From an uncultured Verrucomicrobiae bacterium (GTDB taxonomy: Bacteria > Verrucomicrobiota > Verrucomicrobiia > Limisphaerales > UBA11358), in contig CAVWJH010000001.1 of NCBI GenBank assembly GCA_963755455.1, positions 146,864 through 210,863 on the forward strand: a stretch of DNA of 64,000 bases. Direction: 5' to 3'. The notes under the pieces were generated by a model. That model made no database searches and was not told the DNA's origin. It was given only the letters and a program-made list of their open reading frames with translations. The position numbers and the translations under genes were made by a program. Of this stretch, positions 6,855 to 51,100 are shown in pieces (the first letter of the stretch is position 1; each line of letters opens with the position of its first letter).

Positions 6855-7517
6855 TTATTCCGGCTTCTGGCTTCTGACTTCTGACTTCTGTTTCATGTGC
6901 CGGTGGACGAGGAAATAATACATTCCGCCGAAAACCAGCGCCGCGCCGCCGAGCCAGAGCGTGATGTGGTGTCCTTCGTCCTCGCCCATTTTCACGCCGA
7001 CATAGCAAAGCACGAAACACCAGATCACCGCGCCGAGCAGCGTGAAAATGGAAAACAGCCGGTAATCCATCCGCGTGATGCCGGTGGGAATGCCGACAAG
7101 CTGCCGCGCGCCGGGCAGCATCCGCGCAACGAGCACGCCCATCGCGCCGTAGTGCGACATCCACTGCTCGGCCTTTTCCAGTTTTTCCGGCGGAAACAAA
7201 ATAAATTTTCCGTAACGCAACACCAGCGGCCGTCCGGCGGCGCGCACCAGCCAATACATCGCCGATGCGCCGAGCCACGAACCGAACGCGCCCGCAATGA
7301 CGATGCCAATTTCAGCCGCCCAGCCGGAAAGATGAAGCTGAAAAATATTCAATCCATCCGTCCACGCCAGATGCGCGGCGGGCGGGATGATGAATTCGCT
7401 CGGCAGCGGCAGGAAGGAGCCTTCCAAAGCCATCAACAGCGCGACAAGCGCAAAGCCGCCGGTTTTGAGCGCGCCGAGATACCAGACGATGAGCGGCTGA
7501 AATAAATTTTTGAGCAT
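6855..7517 (-). CDS. DedA family membrane protein
   Basis: LMALEGSFLPLPSEFIIPPAA...YGKFILFPPEKLEKAEQWMSHYGAMGVLVARMLPGARQLVGIPTGITRM is a DedA/SNARE-associated signature. The last ~12 codons (KQKSEVRSQKPE) are encoded by a heptamer array. Confidence 0.85.
   Translation of the reverse strand: MLKNLFQPLIVWYLGALKTGGFALVALLMALEGSFLPLPSEFIIPPAAHLAWTDGLNIFQLHLSGWAAEIGIVIAGAFGSWLGASAMYWLVRAAGRPLVLRYGKFILFPPEKLEKAEQWMSHYGAMGVLVARMLPGARQLVGIPTGITRMDYRLFSIFTLLGAVIWCFVLCYVGVKMGEDEGHHITLWLGGAALVFGGMYYFLVHRHMKQKSEVRSQKPE
6859..6890. repeat. Heptanucleotide-periodic array (GGCTTCT/GACTTCT, about 4.5 units)
   Basis: ggcttctggcttctgacttctgacttctg. It is preceded at 6825-6855 by a REP-like caacgcaaaggcgcaaagacgcaaagg. 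Confidence 0.75.
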
Positions 7518-9448: not shown

Positions 9449-9820
9449 ATGATTCATTTCGACACTAATTGTCTGATTCAAACCGCCATCGCCGGATCGT
9501 TCGCGCATGAACGATTTCGCGCGTGGGCGTCTGCGCGGGAAAATTTCAACGTCAGTAGCGTCGCATGGGCGGAATTTTTGTGTGGGCCGCTGGATGCCAC
9601 CGCCGAATCCATCGCGCGGCAGATTTTTCCAAATCCCGAACCGCTGCTTCCGGCTGACGCCACGCTCGCGGCAAAATTATTCAACCAGACCGGACGCCGT
9701 TCCCGAAGTCTGGCGGATTGCATGATCGCGGCGGTGGCAATTCGTTGCGGCGCAAAACTGGCGACAATCAACGCGGCGGATTTTCAGCCGTTCGCCCAGC
9801 ATGGTTTGAATTTGGCTTGA
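9449..9820 (+). CDS. vapC: PIN domain toxin (VapC-like)
   Basis: [10 protein letters not shown]...[10 protein letters not shown]...[26 protein letters not shown] has the PIN acidic-residue pattern and the typical C-terminal motif. Confidence 0.8.
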
Positions 9821-9838
9821 GTCGCGGACGGTTTATTT

Positions 9839-10760
9839 TCACGCCTTCAAAAAGAAATTCCGCTGCTTCTCGCTGATGGGCATTTCGAGTTTTTCCATCA
9901 CGGCCAGCATGTCTTCCCAGACTTTGCGCTTCTCGCTCATCGCCTGGTTGCGCAGCAGATACGCCGGATGATACGTCGGCATGAGCGGCGTGCCGCGATA
10001 CGTCTGCCAGTTGCCGCGCAGCTTCGTGATGCCGACGGTCTTGCCAAGCAAACCTTCCACCGCCGTCGCGCCGAGCGCGACGAGAACTTTCGGGCCGGAT
10101 CAAATCAATCTGCTCGTGCAGATACGGAATGCACGTCGCCATTTCGTCGGGCGTCGGCTTGCGGTTGCCGGCGGACTGGCCGGGCGTGTCGGGCCGGCAT
10201 TTCAAAATGTTGGCGATGTAAACATCCGCGCGCGAAAGTCCGGTGGCCTGGATGATTTTCGTGAGCAATTGTCCGGCGCGGCCGACGAACGGTTCGCCCT
10301 GCTCGTCTTCATCCGCGCCCGGCGCTTCGCCGACGAACATCAGTTGCGCGTCAATGCTGCCGACGCCGAACACGACGTTCTTGCGCGACGACGCGAGGTG
10401 CGGGCATTTCACGCAGGACAAGGCGCGCTTTCGCAATTCGGCGAAGGCGGCGGCTTTTTCGGGCGAAGAACTGATGATTTGAGATTTGAGATTTTGAATT
10501 TCAGATGTTGGCGCGGTGGACGGAGGCGTGGCGGCGATTTTTTTTGCGGGCATGGAAATTGTGGTTTGAGTTTTAGAAGCGGGTGCGGCGGACGTTTTCT
10601 CAATTTCAGGTTTGAAATTTGAAATTTGAAATTTCGGCGCCGCCTGCGCAAGCGCGCGGAGCGTTTCTTTCGAGACGGCGACATTTCGCACGCCGCGCGA
10701 TTTCAATTCTTCGAGATGATGGATTGTCGCGTCGAGCAGTTCGTTGTAAGCAACGGCCAT
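9839..10760 (-). pseudogene. udg: Family 4 uracil-DNA glycosylase with a ~110-aa N-terminal extension; one frameshift near 10085
   Basis: [51 protein letters not shown]...ANILKCRP...IDLIRP then a frame change to ...[37 protein letters not shown]. Confidence 0.85.
10475..10636. repeat. Two heptamer-periodic arrays inside the udg N-terminal extension (10475-10506 and 10603-10636)
   Basis: gatttgagatttgagattttgaatttcag and aatttcaggtttgaaatttgaaatttgaaatttcg, translated in frame as [11 protein letters not shown] and [13 protein letters not shown]. Confidence 0.75.
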
Positions 10761-19553: not shown

Positions 19554-19640
19554 CCAGTCCAACAGTCCAAAGTCCAATGTCCAAAGTCGGCGCAGGTTGT
19601 TGACTTTGGACTTTAGACTTTGGACTTTAGACTTTAGACT
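19554..19640. repeat. Heptamer-periodic hairpin (AGTCCAA units / GACTTTG-GACTTTA units) in a divergent promoter region
   Basis: Left arm cagtccaacagtccaaagtccaatgtccaaagtc and right arm gactttggactttagactttggactttagactttagactt. It lies between the VOC start (19540, minus) and the nusB start (19647, plus). Confidence 0.85.
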
Positions 19641-19646
19641 TGATTT

Positions 19647-23686: not shown

Positions 23687-24841
23687 GTGGCAAAAAAAGA
23701 TTTCCAATTCATGCGGCTCGCCCTCCGGCTCGCCCGGCGCGGCTATGGCGCAACGTCACCGAATCCGATGGTCGGCGCGGTGCTGGTGAAAGGCGGAAAA
23801 ATCATCGGGCGCGGCTGGCATCGGCGCGCGGGTTTGCCGCACGCGGAAATCGAGGCGCTCCGCGACGCGCAAAAGCGCGGCCACAATCCGCGCGGCGCGA
23901 CGCTTTACGTCACGCTCGAACCGTGCTGCACGCACGGCCGCACGCCGCCTTGCACGGACGCCATCATTGCCGCCGGAATAAAAAAAGTTGTCGTTGGCGC
24001 GACTGATCCGAATCCGAAACACGCAGGCAAAGGGTTTAAGATTTTGCAGCGCGCGGGAATTGAAGTCGTTCACGGAATTTTGGGCGGCGAATGCGCGAAG
24101 CTGAACGAGGCTTTCAATCACTGGATTGTCCACCGCACGCCGTTCGTCACCGTGAAGGCAGCAATGACATTGGACGGCAAAATTGCGACGGCCAGTGGCG
24201 AATCCAAATGGATCACCGGCGAAAAAGCCCGCGCGCAAGGAATGAAATTGCGGCAGGGCGCGGACGCGATTCTCGTCGGCGTGAATACAATTTTGGCGGA
24301 CGACCCGTCGTTGACGTTTCGGCCAGTCCAAAGCCCGAAGTCCAAAGTCCAAAGCCGGAAGCCGGTTCGACGAATTATTTTGGATTCAATGGCGCGGACG
24401 CCGTTAAACGCAAAAGTCGTCAGCGATGAATTTCCGGCGCTGACGACAATTGTTGTCGGCGAACGCGCGCCGAAAAAGCGCGTGGCAACATTGGCGAAAC
24501 TGACAAATGTTCTTGTTGCACCTACAACGAAAAACTTGTCACTTGTCACTCGTCACTCGTCACTCGATTTGCGCTGGCTGTTGGAAAAACTCGGTTCGGA
24601 AAACGTGACGAGCCTGCTGGTCGAAGGCGGCGGCGAGGTGAACGCGTCGTTTCTGCTCGGCGGTTTTGCGCAGCGCGTCGCATTTTTCTATGCGCCGAAA
24701 ATTCTGGGCGCACGCGACTCGCGAAAAGCCGTCGCGGGCGAAGGCGTGAAAGATCCGACTGACGCGATTCAATTGCGCGAAGTCGAATGGCGTCAGCTTG
24801 GCGAGGATTTGCTGCTGACGGCGTTGGTGGTTGCAAGTTGA
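23687..24841 (+). CDS. ribD: Bifunctional riboflavin biosynthesis protein RibD (pyrimidine deaminase / uracil reductase)
   Basis: MRLALRLARRGYGATSPNPMVGAVLV...HAEIEAL...TLEPCCTHGRTPPC (CMP/dCMP deaminase zinc site), then ...VTVKAAMTLDGKIAT...GESKWITG...ILVGVNTILADDPSLT...LLVEGGG. Start is GTG 23687 or ATG 23711. Confidence 0.9.
   Translation: MAKKDFQFMRLALRLARRGYGATSPNPMVGAVLVKGGKIIGRGWHRRAGLPHAEIEALRDAQKRGHNPRGATLYVTLEPCCTHGRTPPCTDAIIAAGIKKVVVGATDPNPKHAGKGFKILQRAGIEVVHGILGGECAKLNEAFNHWIVHRTPFVTVKAAMTLDGKIATASGESKWITGEKARAQGMKLRQGADAILVGVNTILADDPSLTFRPVQSPKSKVQSRKPVRRIILDSMARTPLNAKVVSDEFPALTTIVVGERAPKKRVATLAKLTNVLVAPTTKNLSLVTRHSSLDLRWLLEKLGSENVTSLLVEGGGEVNASFLLGGFAQRVAFFYAPKILGARDSRKAVAGEGVKDPTDAIQLREVEWRQLGEDLLLTALVVAS
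24325..24365. repeat. In-frame heptamer array inside ribD (AGTCCAA/AGCCCGA/AGCCGGA, about 6 units)
   Basis: agtccaaagcccgaagtccaaagtccaaagccggaagccgg encodes PVQSPKSKVQSRKP between LTFR and VRRIILDS. Confidence 0.8.
24535..24567. repeat. In-frame heptamer array inside ribD (CTTGTCA/CTCGTCA, about 5 units)
   Basis: cttgtcacttgtcactcgtcactcgtcactcga encodes NLSLVTRHSS just before LDLRWLLEKLG. The heptamer family matches the pilin-associated hairpins. Confidence 0.8.
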
Positions 24842-24894
24842 AGGTTGAAAGTTGCAGTGGAAAAACTTGCAACTTGCAACCTGCAACCTGCAAC
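24829..24894. repeat. Heptamer-periodic hairpin between ribD and ribE
   Basis: ggttgcaagttgaaggttgaaagttgcag / loop / cttgcaacttgcaacctgcaacctgcaac. The ribD stop codon (24839-24841) lies inside the left arm. Confidence 0.85.
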
Positions 24895-24902
24895 ATCACC
24901 TC

Positions 24903-25514
24903 ATGTTCACCGGCATCATTCAAGAAACTGGAAAGGTCGAGAAAATCGAACACGGGGAAAAATCAATCGCGCTGACGGTTCGCGCGAAAAATTCCGCGCG
25001 CGGCTTGAAAACCGGCGGCAGCCTTGCGGTCAACGGCTGCTGTTTGACGGCGGTGAAAAATTCCGCGCGCGGCAAGTTCAAACTGGTTCAATTTGATTTG
25101 CTGGCGGAAACGTGGAAACGGACGAATTTCCAGTTTCTCAAAACCGGCTCGCTGGTGAATCTGGAGCGGCCATTGCGCGCGGGCGACGAATTCGGCGGGC
25201 ATTTTGTGACGGGACACATTGACGGCGCGGGTAAAATTTCGCGCTGGGAAAAATCTGGCGCGGATCACGTCCTGGAAATCGCCGCGCTGGAAAACGTGAT
25301 GCGTTATGTCATCGAGAAAGGCTCGATTGCGATTGACGGCATCAGTTTGACGGTCGCGGGCGTCGGGCAAAAAAGCTTTCGCGTCTGGATCATTCCGCAC
25401 ACGTTCGATGTGACGGCGTTGCATGAAAAAAAAGTTGGCGACGCGGTGAATCTTGAGGCGGACCTGCTCGGCAAATACGCGGAGAAATTTTCACGGCGGC
25501 GGGCGGCGGGCTGA
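24903..25514 (+). CDS. ribE: Riboflavin synthase (alpha chain)
   Basis: MFTGIIQETGKV...GGSLAVNGCCLT...GHFVTGHIDG...KGSIAIDGISLTV...IIPHT. Confidence 0.9.
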   Translation: MFTGIIQETGKVEKIEHGEKSIALTVRAKNSARGLKTGGSLAVNGCCLTAVKNSARGKFKLVQFDLLAETWKRTNFQFLKTGSLVNLERPLRAGDEFGGHFVTGHIDGAGKISRWEKSGADHVLEIAALENVMRYVIEKGSIAIDGISLTVAGVGQKSFRVWIIPHTFDVTALHEKKVGDAVNLEADLLGKYAEKFSRRRAAG

Positions 25515-25759: not shown

Positions 25760-25844
25760 TGGTGCGCGCGAGAGGACTTGAACCTCCAATCCTTGCGGAA
25801 CCAGATCCTAAGTCTGGCGTGTCTGCCAATTCCACCACGCGCGC
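25760..25844 (-). tRNA. tRNA-Leu (anticodon UAG), class II long variable arm, CCA encoded
   Basis: Reverse complement GCGCGCGTGGTGGAATTGGCAGACACGCCAGACTTAGGATCTGGTTCCGCAAGGATTGGAGGTTCAAGTCCTCTCGCGCGCACCA. The 7-bp acceptor stem pairs, the anticodon stem is CCAGA/TCTGG with loop CTTAGGA, and the T-loop is TTCAAGT. Confidence 0.9.
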
Positions 25845-25860
25845 GGCACGGACAGTTTCA

Positions 25861-25915
25861 GGATTCAAGTTTCAAGTTTCAAGTTTTCAATTGCGGAAGT
25901 TTGAAATTCATTTTC
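25861..25915. repeat. Heptamer-periodic array (TTCAAGT units) next to the tRNA
   Basis: ggattcaagtttcaagtttcaagttttcaattgcggaagtttgaaattca. Confidence 0.65.
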
Positions 25916-43011: not shown

Positions 43012-43037
43012 AAATTTTTATGCGCGACGATAAAAAA

Positions 43038-43126
43038 AGTGACAAGTGGCAAGTGACAAGTGACGGGAAAATGGTGCGCCGGGGAAAAAACCCGTCACTC
43101 GTCACTCGATCACTCGATCACTTGAC
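43038..43126. repeat. Heptamer-periodic hairpin (GTGACAA/GTGGCAA arm and CACTCGT/CACTCGA arm)
   Basis: agtgacaagtggcaagtgacaagtgacggg ... cccgtcactcgtcactcgatcactcgatcacttgac. Confidence 0.85.
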
Positions 43127-47199: not shown

Positions 47200-48152
47200 A
47201 AACAAAAACAACAGTGGCAAGTGGCAAGTGGCAAGTGGCAAGAGCCTCGTCGCGAGGATTTTGTCTTGTCACTCGTCACACGTCACTTGTCACCCGCTCC
47301 GCCTTCACTCTCATCGAGGTGATGGTGGCGGTGGCGCTGCTCTCGCTCATCGTCATCGCGCTGATGGCGGTGTTCAACAGCACGCAGGCGGCGTTCCGCG
47401 CGGGCGTCACGCAGGCGGGCATTCTGGAGGGCGGGCGCGCGACGATGGATTTGATCTCGCAGGATTTGAAGGAGATGGCGCCGTCGGACGGTGTCAGCAA
47501 TGGCGTGGTGAATTTTTACGCCTACGTCGTCAGTTCGCCCGGCCCGCTTGTCCAGACGCTGACCGCCAGCAGCCGGTCGCGGACAAACGTCCTGGAAACA
47601 ATTTTTATCTTGAGCCGCGACAACCAGACTTGGATCGGCACGGGCTATGTCGTGGACACTTCGGCCACGGCGTCCATCAATCCGCTCTACCGTTTCACCC
47701 CCGCCGATTTGCCGCCGCGTCCAGCCCCGTGGCAGATTTTTACCAATTTTCTCGCCAACAGCACGCTTCCGATTTCGCAAAACAACACCAACATGAGCCA
47801 TCTGCTGGACGGCGTGGTGGATTTTCGCGTGCGCGCCTTTGACACCAACGGCGGGCGGATGAACAATCAAGTTGTTTTTACCAGCGGTCAGTTCACCACC
47901 AACGAAAATGTTTATTATCTGCCGTCCGGTTCCGGCTCCGGCTTTGGCGAGACGGGCTTTGTCATGTTCAGCAACACGCTGCCCGCGTCCGTGGAGATTG
48001 ACATGGCCACGCTCGAAGACCGCACCTTGCAGCGCGCCGAATCGCTGCCGAACAACCTGCGCACATCCTATTTGCAGGGTCAGGCAGGCAACGTCCAGGT
48101 TTTCCGCCAGAGCGTTTCCATTCCCAATGTTGACCCGTCCGCCTATCAATGA
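47196..48152 (+). CDS. Pseudopilin 5 (GspJ/PulJ-like) with an unusually long leader
   Basis: GTG overlaps the upstream stop (GTGA). MKTKTTVASGKWQVARASSRGFCLVTRHTSLVTRSA|FTLIEVMVAVALLSLIVIALMAVFNSTQAAFR. Confidence 0.8.
   Translation: MKTKTTVASGKWQVARASSRGFCLVTRHTSLVTRSAFTLIEVMVAVALLSLIVIALMAVFNSTQAAFRAGVTQAGILEGGRATMDLISQDLKEMAPSDGVSNGVVNFYAYVVSSPGPLVQTLTASSRSRTNVLETIFILSRDNQTWIGTGYVVDTSATASINPLYRFTPADLPPRPAPWQIFTNFLANSTLPISQNNTNMSHLLDGVVDFRVRAFDTNGGRMNNQVVFTSGQFTTNENVYYLPSGSGSGFGETGFVMFSNTLPASVEIDMATLEDRTLQRAESLPNNLRTSYLQGQAGNVQVFRQSVSIPNVDPSAYQ
47213..47293. repeat. Heptamer-periodic hairpin (GTGGCAA x4 arm / TTGTCAC-type arm) lying inside the pseudopilin 5 leader-coding region
   Basis: agtggcaagtggcaagtggcaagtggcaag agcctcgtcgcgagg attttgtcttgtcactcgtcacacgtcacttgtcacc. 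Confidence 0.85.
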
Positions 48153-51100
48153 AAATAAAAAGTGACAAGTGGCAAGTGACAAGTGATAAGCGCCGTTGCC
48201 CGGCGCGCGGTGGAACTTTTGCCGCCCATCACTCGTCACTTATCACTCGCCACTCCGAAAACGGCGTCGCGCTGATCATCACGCTCATCCTGCTGGCCGT
48301 GACACTCGTCATGGCGCTCGCGTTCCTGGCCATCAGCCGCCGCGAAAGCGGTTCCGTGACGACCGCCGGCGAGACCGCCACCGCGCGCCTTGCCGCCGAC
48401 GCCGCGCTTGCCAATGCCGAGGCGCAGGCCGTGGCCGGCATCCTCTCCACGACCAATCCCTACGATTTCGGCCTGCTCGTCTCGACGAACGCCCCGCCGT
48501 TGAATTTCAACAACGGTTTGGGCGACTACACCAGTTTGCAAATCAGCCCGCGCCCGCCGGTGTTCATTCCGCAAAACGGCACGAACGATTTTCGTTTTTA
48601 CCTCGACCTGAACCGCAACGGGCATTTTGACTCCAACGGCATCGTGGCGGATGTGGACAACACGGGAGTGACGAATGGAAATTTCTCCTTTGAAACCGGC
48701 GACCCCGAATGGATCGGCGTGCTGGAGCATCCCGACCAGCCGTATGGGCCGGACAACCTGTTCATCGCGCGCTACGCCTTCATCGCCCTGCCCGTCGGCA
48801 ACGCGCTCGACTTGAATTACATTCACAATCAGGTTCTTGATGAACGTTCTTCGACGGTAAATCCACCGAAAGGAATTAACAACAATCCTGAAAATGATTT
48901 ATATTTTCGCAACCAAGATATTGGTTCCTGGGAATTGAACCTCGCGGCATTTCTAGCCGATGTAAACACGAATCAGTGGGGAAGAATTATTGATCCGCCG
49001 AACATCATCGGCAACGGCAGTGGCTATTACACTTACAACGAAACTTCAGGAAATCCGAATCATGGCGCTGCCTTTGACGACGCCCGCGCGCTGCTCGCGT
49101 ATCGTTACGCGAACAATTACAACACGCTTGCCTGGGTCCAGACCCTTTTCGGCAACACCGGCGCGACGGCGTTTCGGAACGATGGCATTGACGGCTATTC
49201 CGACGGGCCGCTGCAGACGACTTTTGACACCAATGAGGATTTTGTTTTCAGTAGCGCCAAGGACATTCCCACACTGCCGTGGGCGGGCGCGGACAGCACC
49301 AACCATTTCTTCACGCCGTCGGATTTGTTCGACCCGGCGAAAAGCTCGCCGGCTTTCACCAACCGACTGCTCATTGCCGACGCGCAAACGGACACCTACG
49401 ACCGCTACACCTATTACCGGCTGCTCTCGCAGCTTGGCACGGACTCCGATCCGGAATCGGGGCAAGATGAATTTGAACTACGACAATCTCGATCGCGGCT
49501 TCAACGGCGTTTTGAACACCAACGGAACCGCGAGCGCGACGAATTTTGTTCCCTGGACGCCGCTGGGATTTTTCACCAACGCCGCCGACCGGATGCTGCG
49601 CGAATATACTGCGAACTGGATCAATCAAAACTACGCCGGTTTCACCAACACTTTCGGCGTCTCGACGACCAGCGCCTTTGGCGTGACGAACATCCCGGTT
49701 TATGTCAATGGACGGTTTGTCTATACACCCGCCGTTCACCGCATCCTCCAACTGGCCGCGAACATTTACGACGCGACGGTGAGCAACAGGAAGAACGGCT
49801 CGCCCGATTATCCCGATGTCTTCCGTCCGCTGTTCAGCAAGGATGCGGCGGGCGATGTTTTCATCTCCGGCTACACGAACTTGAACAATGGCGGCGTTCC
49901 CAATACTGTTTCAGGGCCGGGCGATCCACAGCTTTCCCAGCCATTTGATGTAGCGTATATTTCCGGCTTGTCCGGCGTCATTACCAACGTGCCGGACAAC
50001 ATCTACGGCGTGCCGTGGATCATCGGCGCGAAGAAAGGCTTCCCGAACTTCAACGAAATTTCGATGGAGAACAGTCTGGCCGTCACGCGGCGGCTTCAAC
50101 TGACCCGCACGACAAATAGTTATGTGCCGGTCATCACCGGCACGAACCAGATGTATACGATGAGTTTGAGCAGTTCAATCGGGGTCGAGCTGTGGAATTC
50201 TTACAGCTCCAATTATCCCGGCACGATCCAGATTGACGTGAATGAAAATGCTTGGACGATGATCACCAATTACGATCGGGGTGCGCGTGAATGGAAAGTG
50301 AATCCATTTCCATTTACAACCAACAATTTTATTGCTCCCTATGTTCCTTATGTAATCAATTCATGGCCGGGATCCGGCGTGGGTTGGAGAAGCAGTGGCA
50401 GTCCGAATACCGCCTCATTTGTCCCTTTTGTTTTTACCGGCCCCACTCTGACCAACTCGGTTTATTATTCGTCTTATTATGCAGGCGCGCCAGGCGTGCC
50501 TGCCGGGACTGATTTGTTTTCCACAAACAGCTTGCCGAGTCCCGTTCCTTGGGAACCTACTTCGACGGATGGGAACGGTTTTCATTTCCCGCAGTTTGGA
50601 GTGCTGATAACGAACCGGTTGCAGGTCTTCATGCTGGATGTCAGTGGCGGCGTGTATCACGTCATTGATTATGTCCATTTTGAAGGGCCGGACAGCCCCT
50701 TCAACGTGAATGCAAGTCTGGTTGATAATGACGGCCTGAATAATTATGTGGGCGTGTGGGATACAAATTATCCAACTGGCAGCGTGCCGCCAGCCGGAGT
50801 GACTTATGGCATCTTGAATCAAATCAGGATTTCAAAAAGTGGTGCGCCAGATCAGGATTTAGATGGTTTGTGGCAGGCAGATCCCGAAGCGGTTCCCCTT
50901 GGCGGAACCATAGCCCAACAGCAGGCATTTTTTCAGGCATTTTTCCTGCCGGGCAATCATTCTGGCAGCACAACGAATTTGGAATTAAGCGTGGAAGCGC
51001 CTTACGCGCCGACTCGTTATATTTCACAATATACCACCTGGCAGGTTAATGATCCGCTCGTGCATTATCTGGCCAGCGACATTGATGCGCCGCCACTAAA

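Follow-up and report, generated by a model that had tools for sequence, protein, structure and literature searches.

Simple-sequence repeats whose unit is not a triplet are usually viewed either as ruinous to a reading frame or as a means of turning genes on and off. We describe two tandem arrays of 7-nt units that are translated in frame within ribD, the gene for a bifunctional pyrimidine deaminase/uracil reductase, in a 64,000-nt stretch of the genome of an uncultured Verrucomicrobiae bacterium of the order Limisphaerales (assembly GCA_963755455.1, contig CAVWJH010000001.1, positions 146,864 to 210,863; hereafter the window, whose numbering is used unless stated otherwise). The closest known class of repeats is that of the heptanucleotide long simple-sequence repeats (LSSR), including the short tandemly repeated repetitive (STRR) sequences of cyanobacteria, which show an excess of period 7 and occur in inverted pairs (Mazel et al. 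1990; Mrazek et al. 2007, as summarised in PMC4692102 and PMC4679880). According to the same summaries, heptanucleotide repeats of the GGGAATC type in Xanthomonas and Nostoc mostly comprise about four units, STRR and Xanthomonas repeats are mainly intergenic, and both length and sequence at a given locus differ between related species, with polymerase slippage as the proposed cause. A second described system is the Rickettsia palindromic element (RPE), a mobile element of ~150 bp that is palindromic, encodes a conserved peptide and inserts into genes (Ogata et al. 2000/2002, as summarised in PMC10969869). Finally, a survey of simple-sequence repeats (SSR) in Haemophilus (PMC2651432) indicates that heptanucleotide repeats serve phase variation in some pathogens. 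A literature search returned no report of heptamer repeats for Verrucomicrobiota.

The ribD gene (positions 23687 to 24841, + strand) encodes 384 residues when read from a GTG codon; the database gene call begins at the ATG at 23711 and yields 376. No internal stop interrupts the open reading frame (ORF). The product has an N-terminal zinc deaminase domain with the H-x-E and PC..C motifs (dCMP_cyt_deam_1, PF00383, 3.8e-23) and a C-terminal reductase domain (RibD_C, PF01872, 8.5e-49), the architecture of bifunctional RibD/RibG proteins, and its catalytic residues H52-A53-E54, C80 and C89 are invariant among 131 homologues. An AlphaFold2 (AF2) model computed from a 131-sequence alignment reached a predicted local distance difference score (pLDDT) of 85.5 and a predicted template-modeling score (pTM) of 0.85; it superseded a first run with 54 close homologues, in which the pLDDT was 58.9 and the reductase domain was unreliable. 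The closest solved structure is that of Bacillus subtilis RibG (2b3z, E 3e-81), and Foldseek comparisons of the model with 2b3z and 4g3m gave E values of ~1e-41 and TM-scores of 0.82-0.87, as befits a whole-chain RibD/RibG fold. Since the reading frame is unbroken, both domains are present, the catalytic residues are invariant and the confident model superposes on RibG/RibD, we regard ribD as intact.

Within this frame lie two head-to-tail arrays of 7-nt direct repeats, arranged in tandem as LSSR and STRR are. Array 1, at site 1 (24325 to 24365, + strand), comprises 5.9 units of the form AG[TC]C[CG][AG]A, namely AGTCCAA, AGCCCGA, AGTCCAA, AGTCCAA, AGCCGGA and AGCCGG, the later of which are degenerate; Tandem Repeats Finder (TRF) delimits it at 24325-24354, with period 7 and 4.3 copies of AGTCCAA. 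The peptide that it encodes is PVQSPKSKVQSRKP (P213-P226). Array 2, at site 2 (24534 to 24568, + strand), is of the ACTYGTC type and reads ACTTGTC, ACTTGTC, ACTCGTC, ACTCGTC and ACTCGAT (TRF: 24534-24566, period 7, 4.7 copies of ACTCGTC). It encodes, after a lysine, NLSLVTRHSS (N283-S292), followed by LDL; its final unit constitutes the conserved Leu-Asp codons, with which the segment spans residues 283-294. Neither array has an inverted partner within 80 nt, so that the hairpin or palindrome characteristic of RPE is lacking, and their sizes (41 and 35 nt) fall well below the ~100-150 bp of that type of element. Pairing between the two arrays was also considered and was rejected, as their units are not complementary.

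Both arrays occupy positions where the fold appears to tolerate them. In the AF2 model, array 1 falls in predicted coil between a helix (199-205) and a strand (228-232), and array 2 in predicted coil between a strand (274-278) and a helix (295-304); the 10-residue blocks at these places have a pLDDT of 56 and 61, respectively, and the elements flanking the loops are confidently predicted. The alignment with B. subtilis RibG is gapped at both sites. In Escherichia coli RibD, site 1 is taken up by a longer, unrelated loop, and the alignment at site 2 is poor. Thus, the picture given in the preliminary description of this DNA, of a full-length, unbroken ribD carrying two in-frame heptamer arrays in variable loops, is borne out by the TRF calls, by direct reading of the sequence and, as far as the placement in loops is concerned, by the structural model and the comparison with solved homologues.

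The evolutionary behavior of these segments was followed in an alignment of ribD from 100 distinct genomes, the closest pair of which is 87% identical in DNA. All 100 orthologues read through both loops in frame. The period-7 arrays that they contain (76 in all) map without exception to reference residues 216-222 or 286-288, and none was found elsewhere in ribD, including loops that tolerate inserts of 17-45 residues derived from sequences resembling repetitive extragenic palindromes (REP). A third site (site 0), located after the GIEVV motif between both domains, harbors such REP-like palindromes in frame, 17-45 residues in length, in many relatives and arrays in none. The site-2 segment is missing from same-order relatives of other families and from the solved structures of other phyla, which identifies the segments as lineage-specific; no RibD orthologue from a distant phylum was seen to carry a homologous peptide encoded by non-repetitive DNA. 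The units themselves vary widely among relatives, including AGTCCAA, AGAAGTC, GGAAAGC, AGATGGA/C, CATTCAA, GGGTTCA and others at site 1, and ACTCGTC, ATTCAAA, AATCGGC, AATCCGC, AATCGCA, ACTCCGC and others at site 2.

Loop lengths change in discrete steps. At site 2, 28 genomes have a loop of 6-7 residues and 50 have one of 13-14; a length of 10 is found once, and lengths of 8, 9, 11 and 12 are absent. Loops longer than 13-14 residues are the classes that carry REP inserts. Site-1 lengths also peak 7 residues apart (8, 14-15 and 21 residues), with minor intermediate classes; a second count that included the flanks recovered these classes as well. A step of 7 residues equals 21 nt, or three units, and the two allele states are indeed exactly three units apart, the short one containing ~1.5 units and the long one ~4.6. 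What remains in the short alleles is ~1.5 units of the very unit that is expanded elsewhere, as in AAATCGGCAATTGA, AATTCAAAATTGA and AACTCGTCACTT. Differences in copy number between related genomes at the same locus, which we observed in both loops of RibD and in both loops of BioA (see below), are also a property of LSSR and STRR; steps in multiples of 21 nt and a register locked to codons, on the other hand, are not mentioned for those repeats in the summaries cited above, as far as these go.

The codon lock is most evident at site 2, where all 30 clear arrays share one register and end in A[AC]T[CTG]GA[TC], that is, in the conserved codons for Ile/Leu and Asp. Within the unit, all families have in common positions 1, 3 and 4 (A, T and C; 79/90, 71/90 and 74/90, respectively), and positions 2, 5, 6 and 7 vary. 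Identity between units is 0.77 within a site-2 array as against 0.45 between genomes at the same unit position, the latter value being about the level found at third codon positions of the flanks (0.52). A comparison of two relatives (L033 and L108) provides an example: a one-base difference between them is present in three of the four units. As units are alike within arrays and unlike between genomes, the arrays are repeatedly homogenized, faster than point mutation erodes them. Judged from these sequence comparisons, the pattern at site 2 is one of concerted evolution of an orthologous repeat, unlike that expected from the repeated arrival of ready-made cassettes.

The ribD arrays belong to a class of repeats that pervades this Pedosphaerales/Limisphaerales clade of Verrucomicrobiota. 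The source assembly (3.79 Mb in 4 contigs, frameshift-rich, with a marker completeness of 65.6%) contains a total of ~215-260 period-7 arrays, roughly half of them within genes. At a TRF score of at least 40, there are 259 arrays of period 7 as against 24 of period 6 and 52 of period 8, and the units fall into 71 canonical classes; an excess over neighboring periods involving several unit families is likewise what characterizes LSSR and STRR. When arrays of at least 21 nt were located with our own scanner and a crude gene caller (75% coverage), which makes the counts approximate, 112 were internal to called genes, 74 were intergenic and 29 lay at the edge of a gene. This differs from the predominantly intergenic location described for STRR and Xanthomonas repeats. 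The distribution of copy numbers has its maximum at ~4.5 units and drops steeply beyond 5 (the bins of 4.5, 5.0 and 5.5 units hold 72, 25 and 2 arrays, respectively), and array length seldom exceeds 34-36 nt, inside and outside genes alike. Genomes of relatives (metagenome-assembled genomes, MAGs, of Pedosphaera/Limisphaerales from lakes, soils and peat; Verrucomicrobiota subdivision 3) gave a similar result: 110 loci totaling 439 kb yielded 87 period-7 arrays, three of period 8, two of period 10 and none of periods 5, 6 and 9, with a length mode of 29-33 nt and a maximum of 37. No period-7 array was found in eight same-order loci from other families.

A few unit families (AAAGTCC, AACTCTC, ACTCCGC, AAATCGT, AAAATTC and ACGAGTG) recur at many loci of the source genome. 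The same units are thus found at many places, yet those in ribD keep to two loops and to a register set by the flanking codons. As a separate observation, five of the AACTCTC arrays (contig coordinates C3:118247, C3:163093, C4:958732, C4:1063645 and C4:1197335) are embedded in long identical flanks, atttcccgtcccggctgaatttcca ... gattcacat(c/t)gccatgtg, and form part of a larger dispersed repeat, possibly the end of a mobile element. Of the genic arrays, 62 have the G-poor strand as their coding strand and 21 have the G-rich one. In the peptides that they encode, Ser (3.1x), Lys (2.2x), Gln (1.8x) and Asn (1.7x) are overrepresented, and mean hydropathy is -0.85 versus -0.15 for the proteome. 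The genes concerned specify housekeeping enzymes, such as RibD, BioA, Mfd and a RimO/MiaB-like protein.

Taken together with what PMC4692102 and PMC4679880 relate of LSSR and STRR, the likeness extends to the tandem 7-nt units, the period-7 excess, the presence of several families per genome, the frequent inverted pairs, the figure of about four units and the differences between species at the same locus. The main difference, to the extent covered by these summaries, is that about half of the arrays in the source genome are translated within housekeeping genes. Moreover, the units are not G-rich, so that G-quadruplex formation does not explain the four units; we had considered this explanation, by analogy with Xanthomonas, and rejected it because most units here lack a run of G or C.

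BioA provides a second case. Two arrays are found in BioA of the source genome, and in 30 same-genus genomes the arrays are confined to two loops, with units that differ between genomes; short alleles are present, lengths change in steps of +7 residues, and REP inserts occur in the same loops. At site A of six of these proteins (L117, L130, L131, L132, L134 and L135), a complete hairpin pair consisting of an array, a spacer and an inverted array is translated in frame and lengthens the protein by ~17-25 residues. In each, the array anchored on the codons forms the right arm, and an inverted copy of it forms the left. These in-frame hairpins suggest that single arrays may be related to the intergenic hairpins through inverted duplication.

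The REP-like palindromes mentioned above are GC-rich and contribute in-frame codons to these same permissive loops in the relatives' RibD and BioA. In RibD, they are found at the site after GIEVV in L004, L011 and L023-L030, and at site 2 in L013, L028, L029, L059, L064, L075, L083, L085, L086, L099 and others; in BioA, they are found in L113, L114, L120, L126, L131 and L136. Recurring peptides encoded by them include ...RRARSDAPYQ, ...GSRGRSPHQ, SAGVPPA..RRDAGAP, LIPNSRKKLEPPHVGRY and SCLSPS..RDRLEACPT. We considered using these inserts as a clock and rejected the idea, as near-identity between diverged genomes probably reflects a family consensus and not age. Some inserts are nested within heptamer arrays. 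A shared element of 36 nt, CTCCGAT(G/T)AATCGCGAGCACGCGAC(A/G)AAAGTCGGTG, occurs in the ribD gene of one relative (L106:2421-2456) and in the bioA gene of another (L114:1814-1849), in both instances inside an AATCCGC array, after ...CCGCAA. The situation is reminiscent of Nostoc, where Elhai and colleagues reportedly found, in 2008, that small dispersed repeats (SDR) can lie within heptamer tandem arrays. The likeness lies in the presence of small palindromic elements of ~30-36 nt inside the relatives' heptamer arrays; it does not extend to the DNA studied here, since no element is nested in the ribD arrays of the window and the 36-nt element is absent from the source genome.

These findings lead us to favor, as the probable explanation, that both RibD segments are heptanucleotide simple-sequence repeats that arose and have persisted in place in two permissive coil loops. 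Expansion and contraction in place is indicated by the confinement to two loops, by the single register at site 2 and by the ~1.5-unit remnants in alleles free of arrays. One could envision replication slippage, or misalignment at short homologies, as the engine of the process: an array would contract to ~1.5 units and re-expand from whichever unit survives. Within genes, the frame would be kept only by three-unit steps, and selection would retain a unit only if it is placed in a loop and if each of its three frames is free of stops and gives a hydrophilic peptide. The encoded peptides are probably passengers without a catalytic role.

Several observations are at odds with so simple an account. 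No allele of 2.6 or 3.6 units was seen among the ribD orthologues, and simple misalignment adds one unit at a time, which leaves the in-frame gain of three units from ~1.5 units unexplained. The same size of ~4.3-4.9 units, with a ceiling near 34-37 nt, is also found outside genes, so that selection for frame alone does not set the array size. Furthermore, a core, N[AC]A[AC]T[CT]N, is common to the 53 unit families to a degree that composition does not account for (4.87 bits versus 3.73 for shuffles, whose maximum was 4.11); this common core, together with the recurring families, may point to a process that is sequence-specific or to arrays being copied from one another. No single register is obvious among the families at site 1, and more than one origin is therefore possible there. 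Lastly, all comparisons were made between species-level genomes, with at most 87% DNA identity.

As the three-unit gain, the size of ~4.6 units with its ceiling outside genes, and the shared core are not accounted for by slippage in place, two alternatives stay alive, each with a modest minority chance of being correct. In the first, arrays copy one another: a locus whose seed resembles a common unit would be overwritten, through short-homology template switching or gene conversion, by an array of the same family located elsewhere. Copying would determine which unit an array has as well as its standard length of ~4.6 units, in and outside genes, and would yield the three-unit step in a single event. 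The existence of a few dominant families (the six named above), the uniform size in coding and non-coding DNA and the fact that the families at the relatives' ribD are those common in the source genome all speak for such an exchange. However, the internal order of variant units does not match between same-family arrays of the source genome, 7-11 nt of homology is very short for conversion, and single-base changes of the unit are shared by the units of one array and not by other loci.

The second alternative is close to the idea, put forward in the preliminary description, that the segments were inserted in the manner of RPE. Small mobile cassettes, related in kind to RPE, to miniature inverted-repeat transposable elements (MITE) or to SDR, might insert anywhere and survive only where the protein tolerates them, the two loops being merely permissive; we see this, too, as having a limited share of the probability. 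Several points seem to fit: members of one unit family turn up at many loci that are unrelated, as are their flanks, the size of the arrays is uniform (~30-33 nt), real REP-like palindromes lie in frame in the same loops of relatives, some of them nested inside arrays, and BioA of relatives contains array hairpin pairs in frame. Yet, in the 100 orthologues, no array is found at site 0, open as it is to REP inserts of 17-45 residues, or anywhere else; all site-2 arrays have one register with the flanking codons; array ends show neither a fixed phase nor a target duplication; ~1.5 matching units are left in the short alleles, as seen at the level of species comparisons; and the arrays, 30-41 nt in length, consist of direct repeats and are not palindromic. 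The likeness to RPE, as these are depicted in PMC10969869, consists in repeat DNA being translated in frame, without damage, in unrelated metabolic genes and at fold-compatible positions; for ribD, this is attested by the intact ORF, the coil loops and the gaps in solved homologues. The arrays differ from that depiction in being short, anchored on local codons and situated in the same two loops in all relatives. Hence, the proposed insertion is supported in part, by the in-frame position of the segments, their location in loops and their lineage specificity, but it is not supported as a mechanism, given the short direct repeats, the two-loop confinement, the single site-2 register and the ~1.5-unit remnants. 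On the same depiction, the REP-like palindromes in the RibD and BioA loops of relatives are a closer analogue of RPE than the ribD arrays are.

A further possibility, to which we attach only a small chance, is that a dedicated, sequence-directed process, and not plain slippage, writes and rewrites arrays, both within and outside coding DNA, around an A[AC]T[CT] core and to a set length of ~4.6 units (30-33 nt). Should this be true, the loops of many housekeeping enzymes would evolve in quanta of 7 residues.

It appears very unlikely that the arrays are selected devices, be they contingency switches that vary the phase of ribD by one-unit slippage or signals acting in mRNA or translation. The gain or loss of one 7-nt unit does shift the frame, and the phase-variable heptanucleotide repeats of Haemophilus, as presented in PMC2651432, resemble the ribD arrays in having a non-triplet unit inside coding sequence. 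In the 100 orthologues, however, loop lengths differ by 7 residues and lengths change in 21-nt steps only, which departs from the single-unit, frame-switching alleles of contingency loci and, within the scope of that survey, sets the ribD arrays, whose copy number changes only in threes, apart from the Haemophilus repeats. A role in phase variation is improbable because no out-of-frame allele was seen in 100 genomes, each ribD remaining in frame through both arrays, and because the genes concerned are housekeeping genes. As for an assembly or sequencing artefact, which the frameshift-rich, incomplete assembly might bring to mind, it can be practically discarded given that dozens of independent MAGs from different studies carry orthologous arrays, that the ribD ORF is intact and that the specificity for period 7 is extreme.

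Across the window, TRF returned 26 period-7 rows, and several of the other arrays deserve mention. A hairpin composed of the array-1 unit family (AGTCCAA x4.6, then GACTTTR x5.7) occupies 19556-19641, between a glyoxalase-like gene and nusB, and one of the array-2 family (AAGTGAC x4, then GTCACTC-type units) lies at 43037-43122, adjoining prepilin-type (N_methyl) genes; pairs resembling the latter are also found at 47213-47293 and 48160-48254. On the - strand, an array of TCAGAAG x3.9 (coding strand) at 6864-6890 encodes the C-terminal tail, ...KQKSEVRSQKPE, of a DedA/VTT-domain protein (ORF 6855-7517), and two arrays (10476-10506 and 10611-10634, together spanning 10476-10634) are translated in the N-terminal extension of a uracil-DNA glycosylase (UDG; ORF 9768-10760). 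The UDG is of the family-4 type, and its domain begins at residue 131, after a 130-residue extension. All of these agree with earlier statements that the ribD unit families also occur between genes, near 19.55 kb and at the pilin hairpins, that the C-terminal end of DedA is array-encoded and that the udg extension contains arrays in frame. The udg frame itself is lost after ...IDLIRPE, the UDG profile being matched only to position 85/141, which fits a frameshift-rich assembly; ribD is unaffected. A tRNA gene (25763-25844, - strand; 56 bits in Rfam) is located just upstream of a further heptamer array (25854-25886).

The junction between ribD and ribE is also occupied by a heptamer-array hairpin (24826 to 24894, + strand; identified by TRF and direct reading), made of GGTTGCA/AGTTGAA x4, a loop and CTTGCAA/CCTGCAA x4. 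The ribD stop codon (24839-24841) falls inside its left arm, and the hairpin ends 10 nt before the ribE ATG at 24905. Its predicted RNA fold has a free energy of -42 kcal/mol (z -5.0), and the right arm keeps ~4 units in most relatives. The structure is a candidate terminator, attenuator or processing site that could act between both genes; an Rfam scan of 18-28 kb found no riboswitch, its only matches being the tRNA and a chance microRNA match on the hairpin. In many relatives (L024, L031, L037, L038, L061, L062, L065, L067, L083, L088, L101, L103 and others), the hairpin is replaced by a conserved word of ~35 nt, AAACGCGGCTCGACGGAGTCCCGCCCCACCATTAAA, which sits in the ribD-ribE spacer shortly before the ribE start. 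One relative (L007) has, ~20-130 nt after the ribD stop, a tandem array of an 8-nt unit (CGTTGAAT, ~11 copies), an exception both to the heptamer rule and to the size ceiling.

Relative to LSSR and STRR, as portrayed in PMC4692102 and PMC4679880, the arrays are distinguished by the phylum in which they occur, by the large share of them that is translated, by units that are not G-rich and by a behavior that is locked to codons and proceeds in three-unit steps. For the annotation and alignment of Verrucomicrobiota proteins, the findings call for caution, since loop residues in them are repeat-derived and not homologous in sequence. The loops that accept arrays also trap REP-like palindromes and thus mark permissive sites that might be usable for protein engineering. 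The arrays also pose a defined puzzle, that of their size of ~4.6 units and of the gain of three units in one step, and its solution could bring to light some property of replication or repair. In these bacteria, heptamer repeats routinely supply essential enzymes with new loop sequence. The rules that they follow are clean, namely steps in multiples of three units, a codon-locked register, fast homogenization within arrays and a sharp size ceiling, and offer a simple and testable model for the way in which proteins gain disordered loops.

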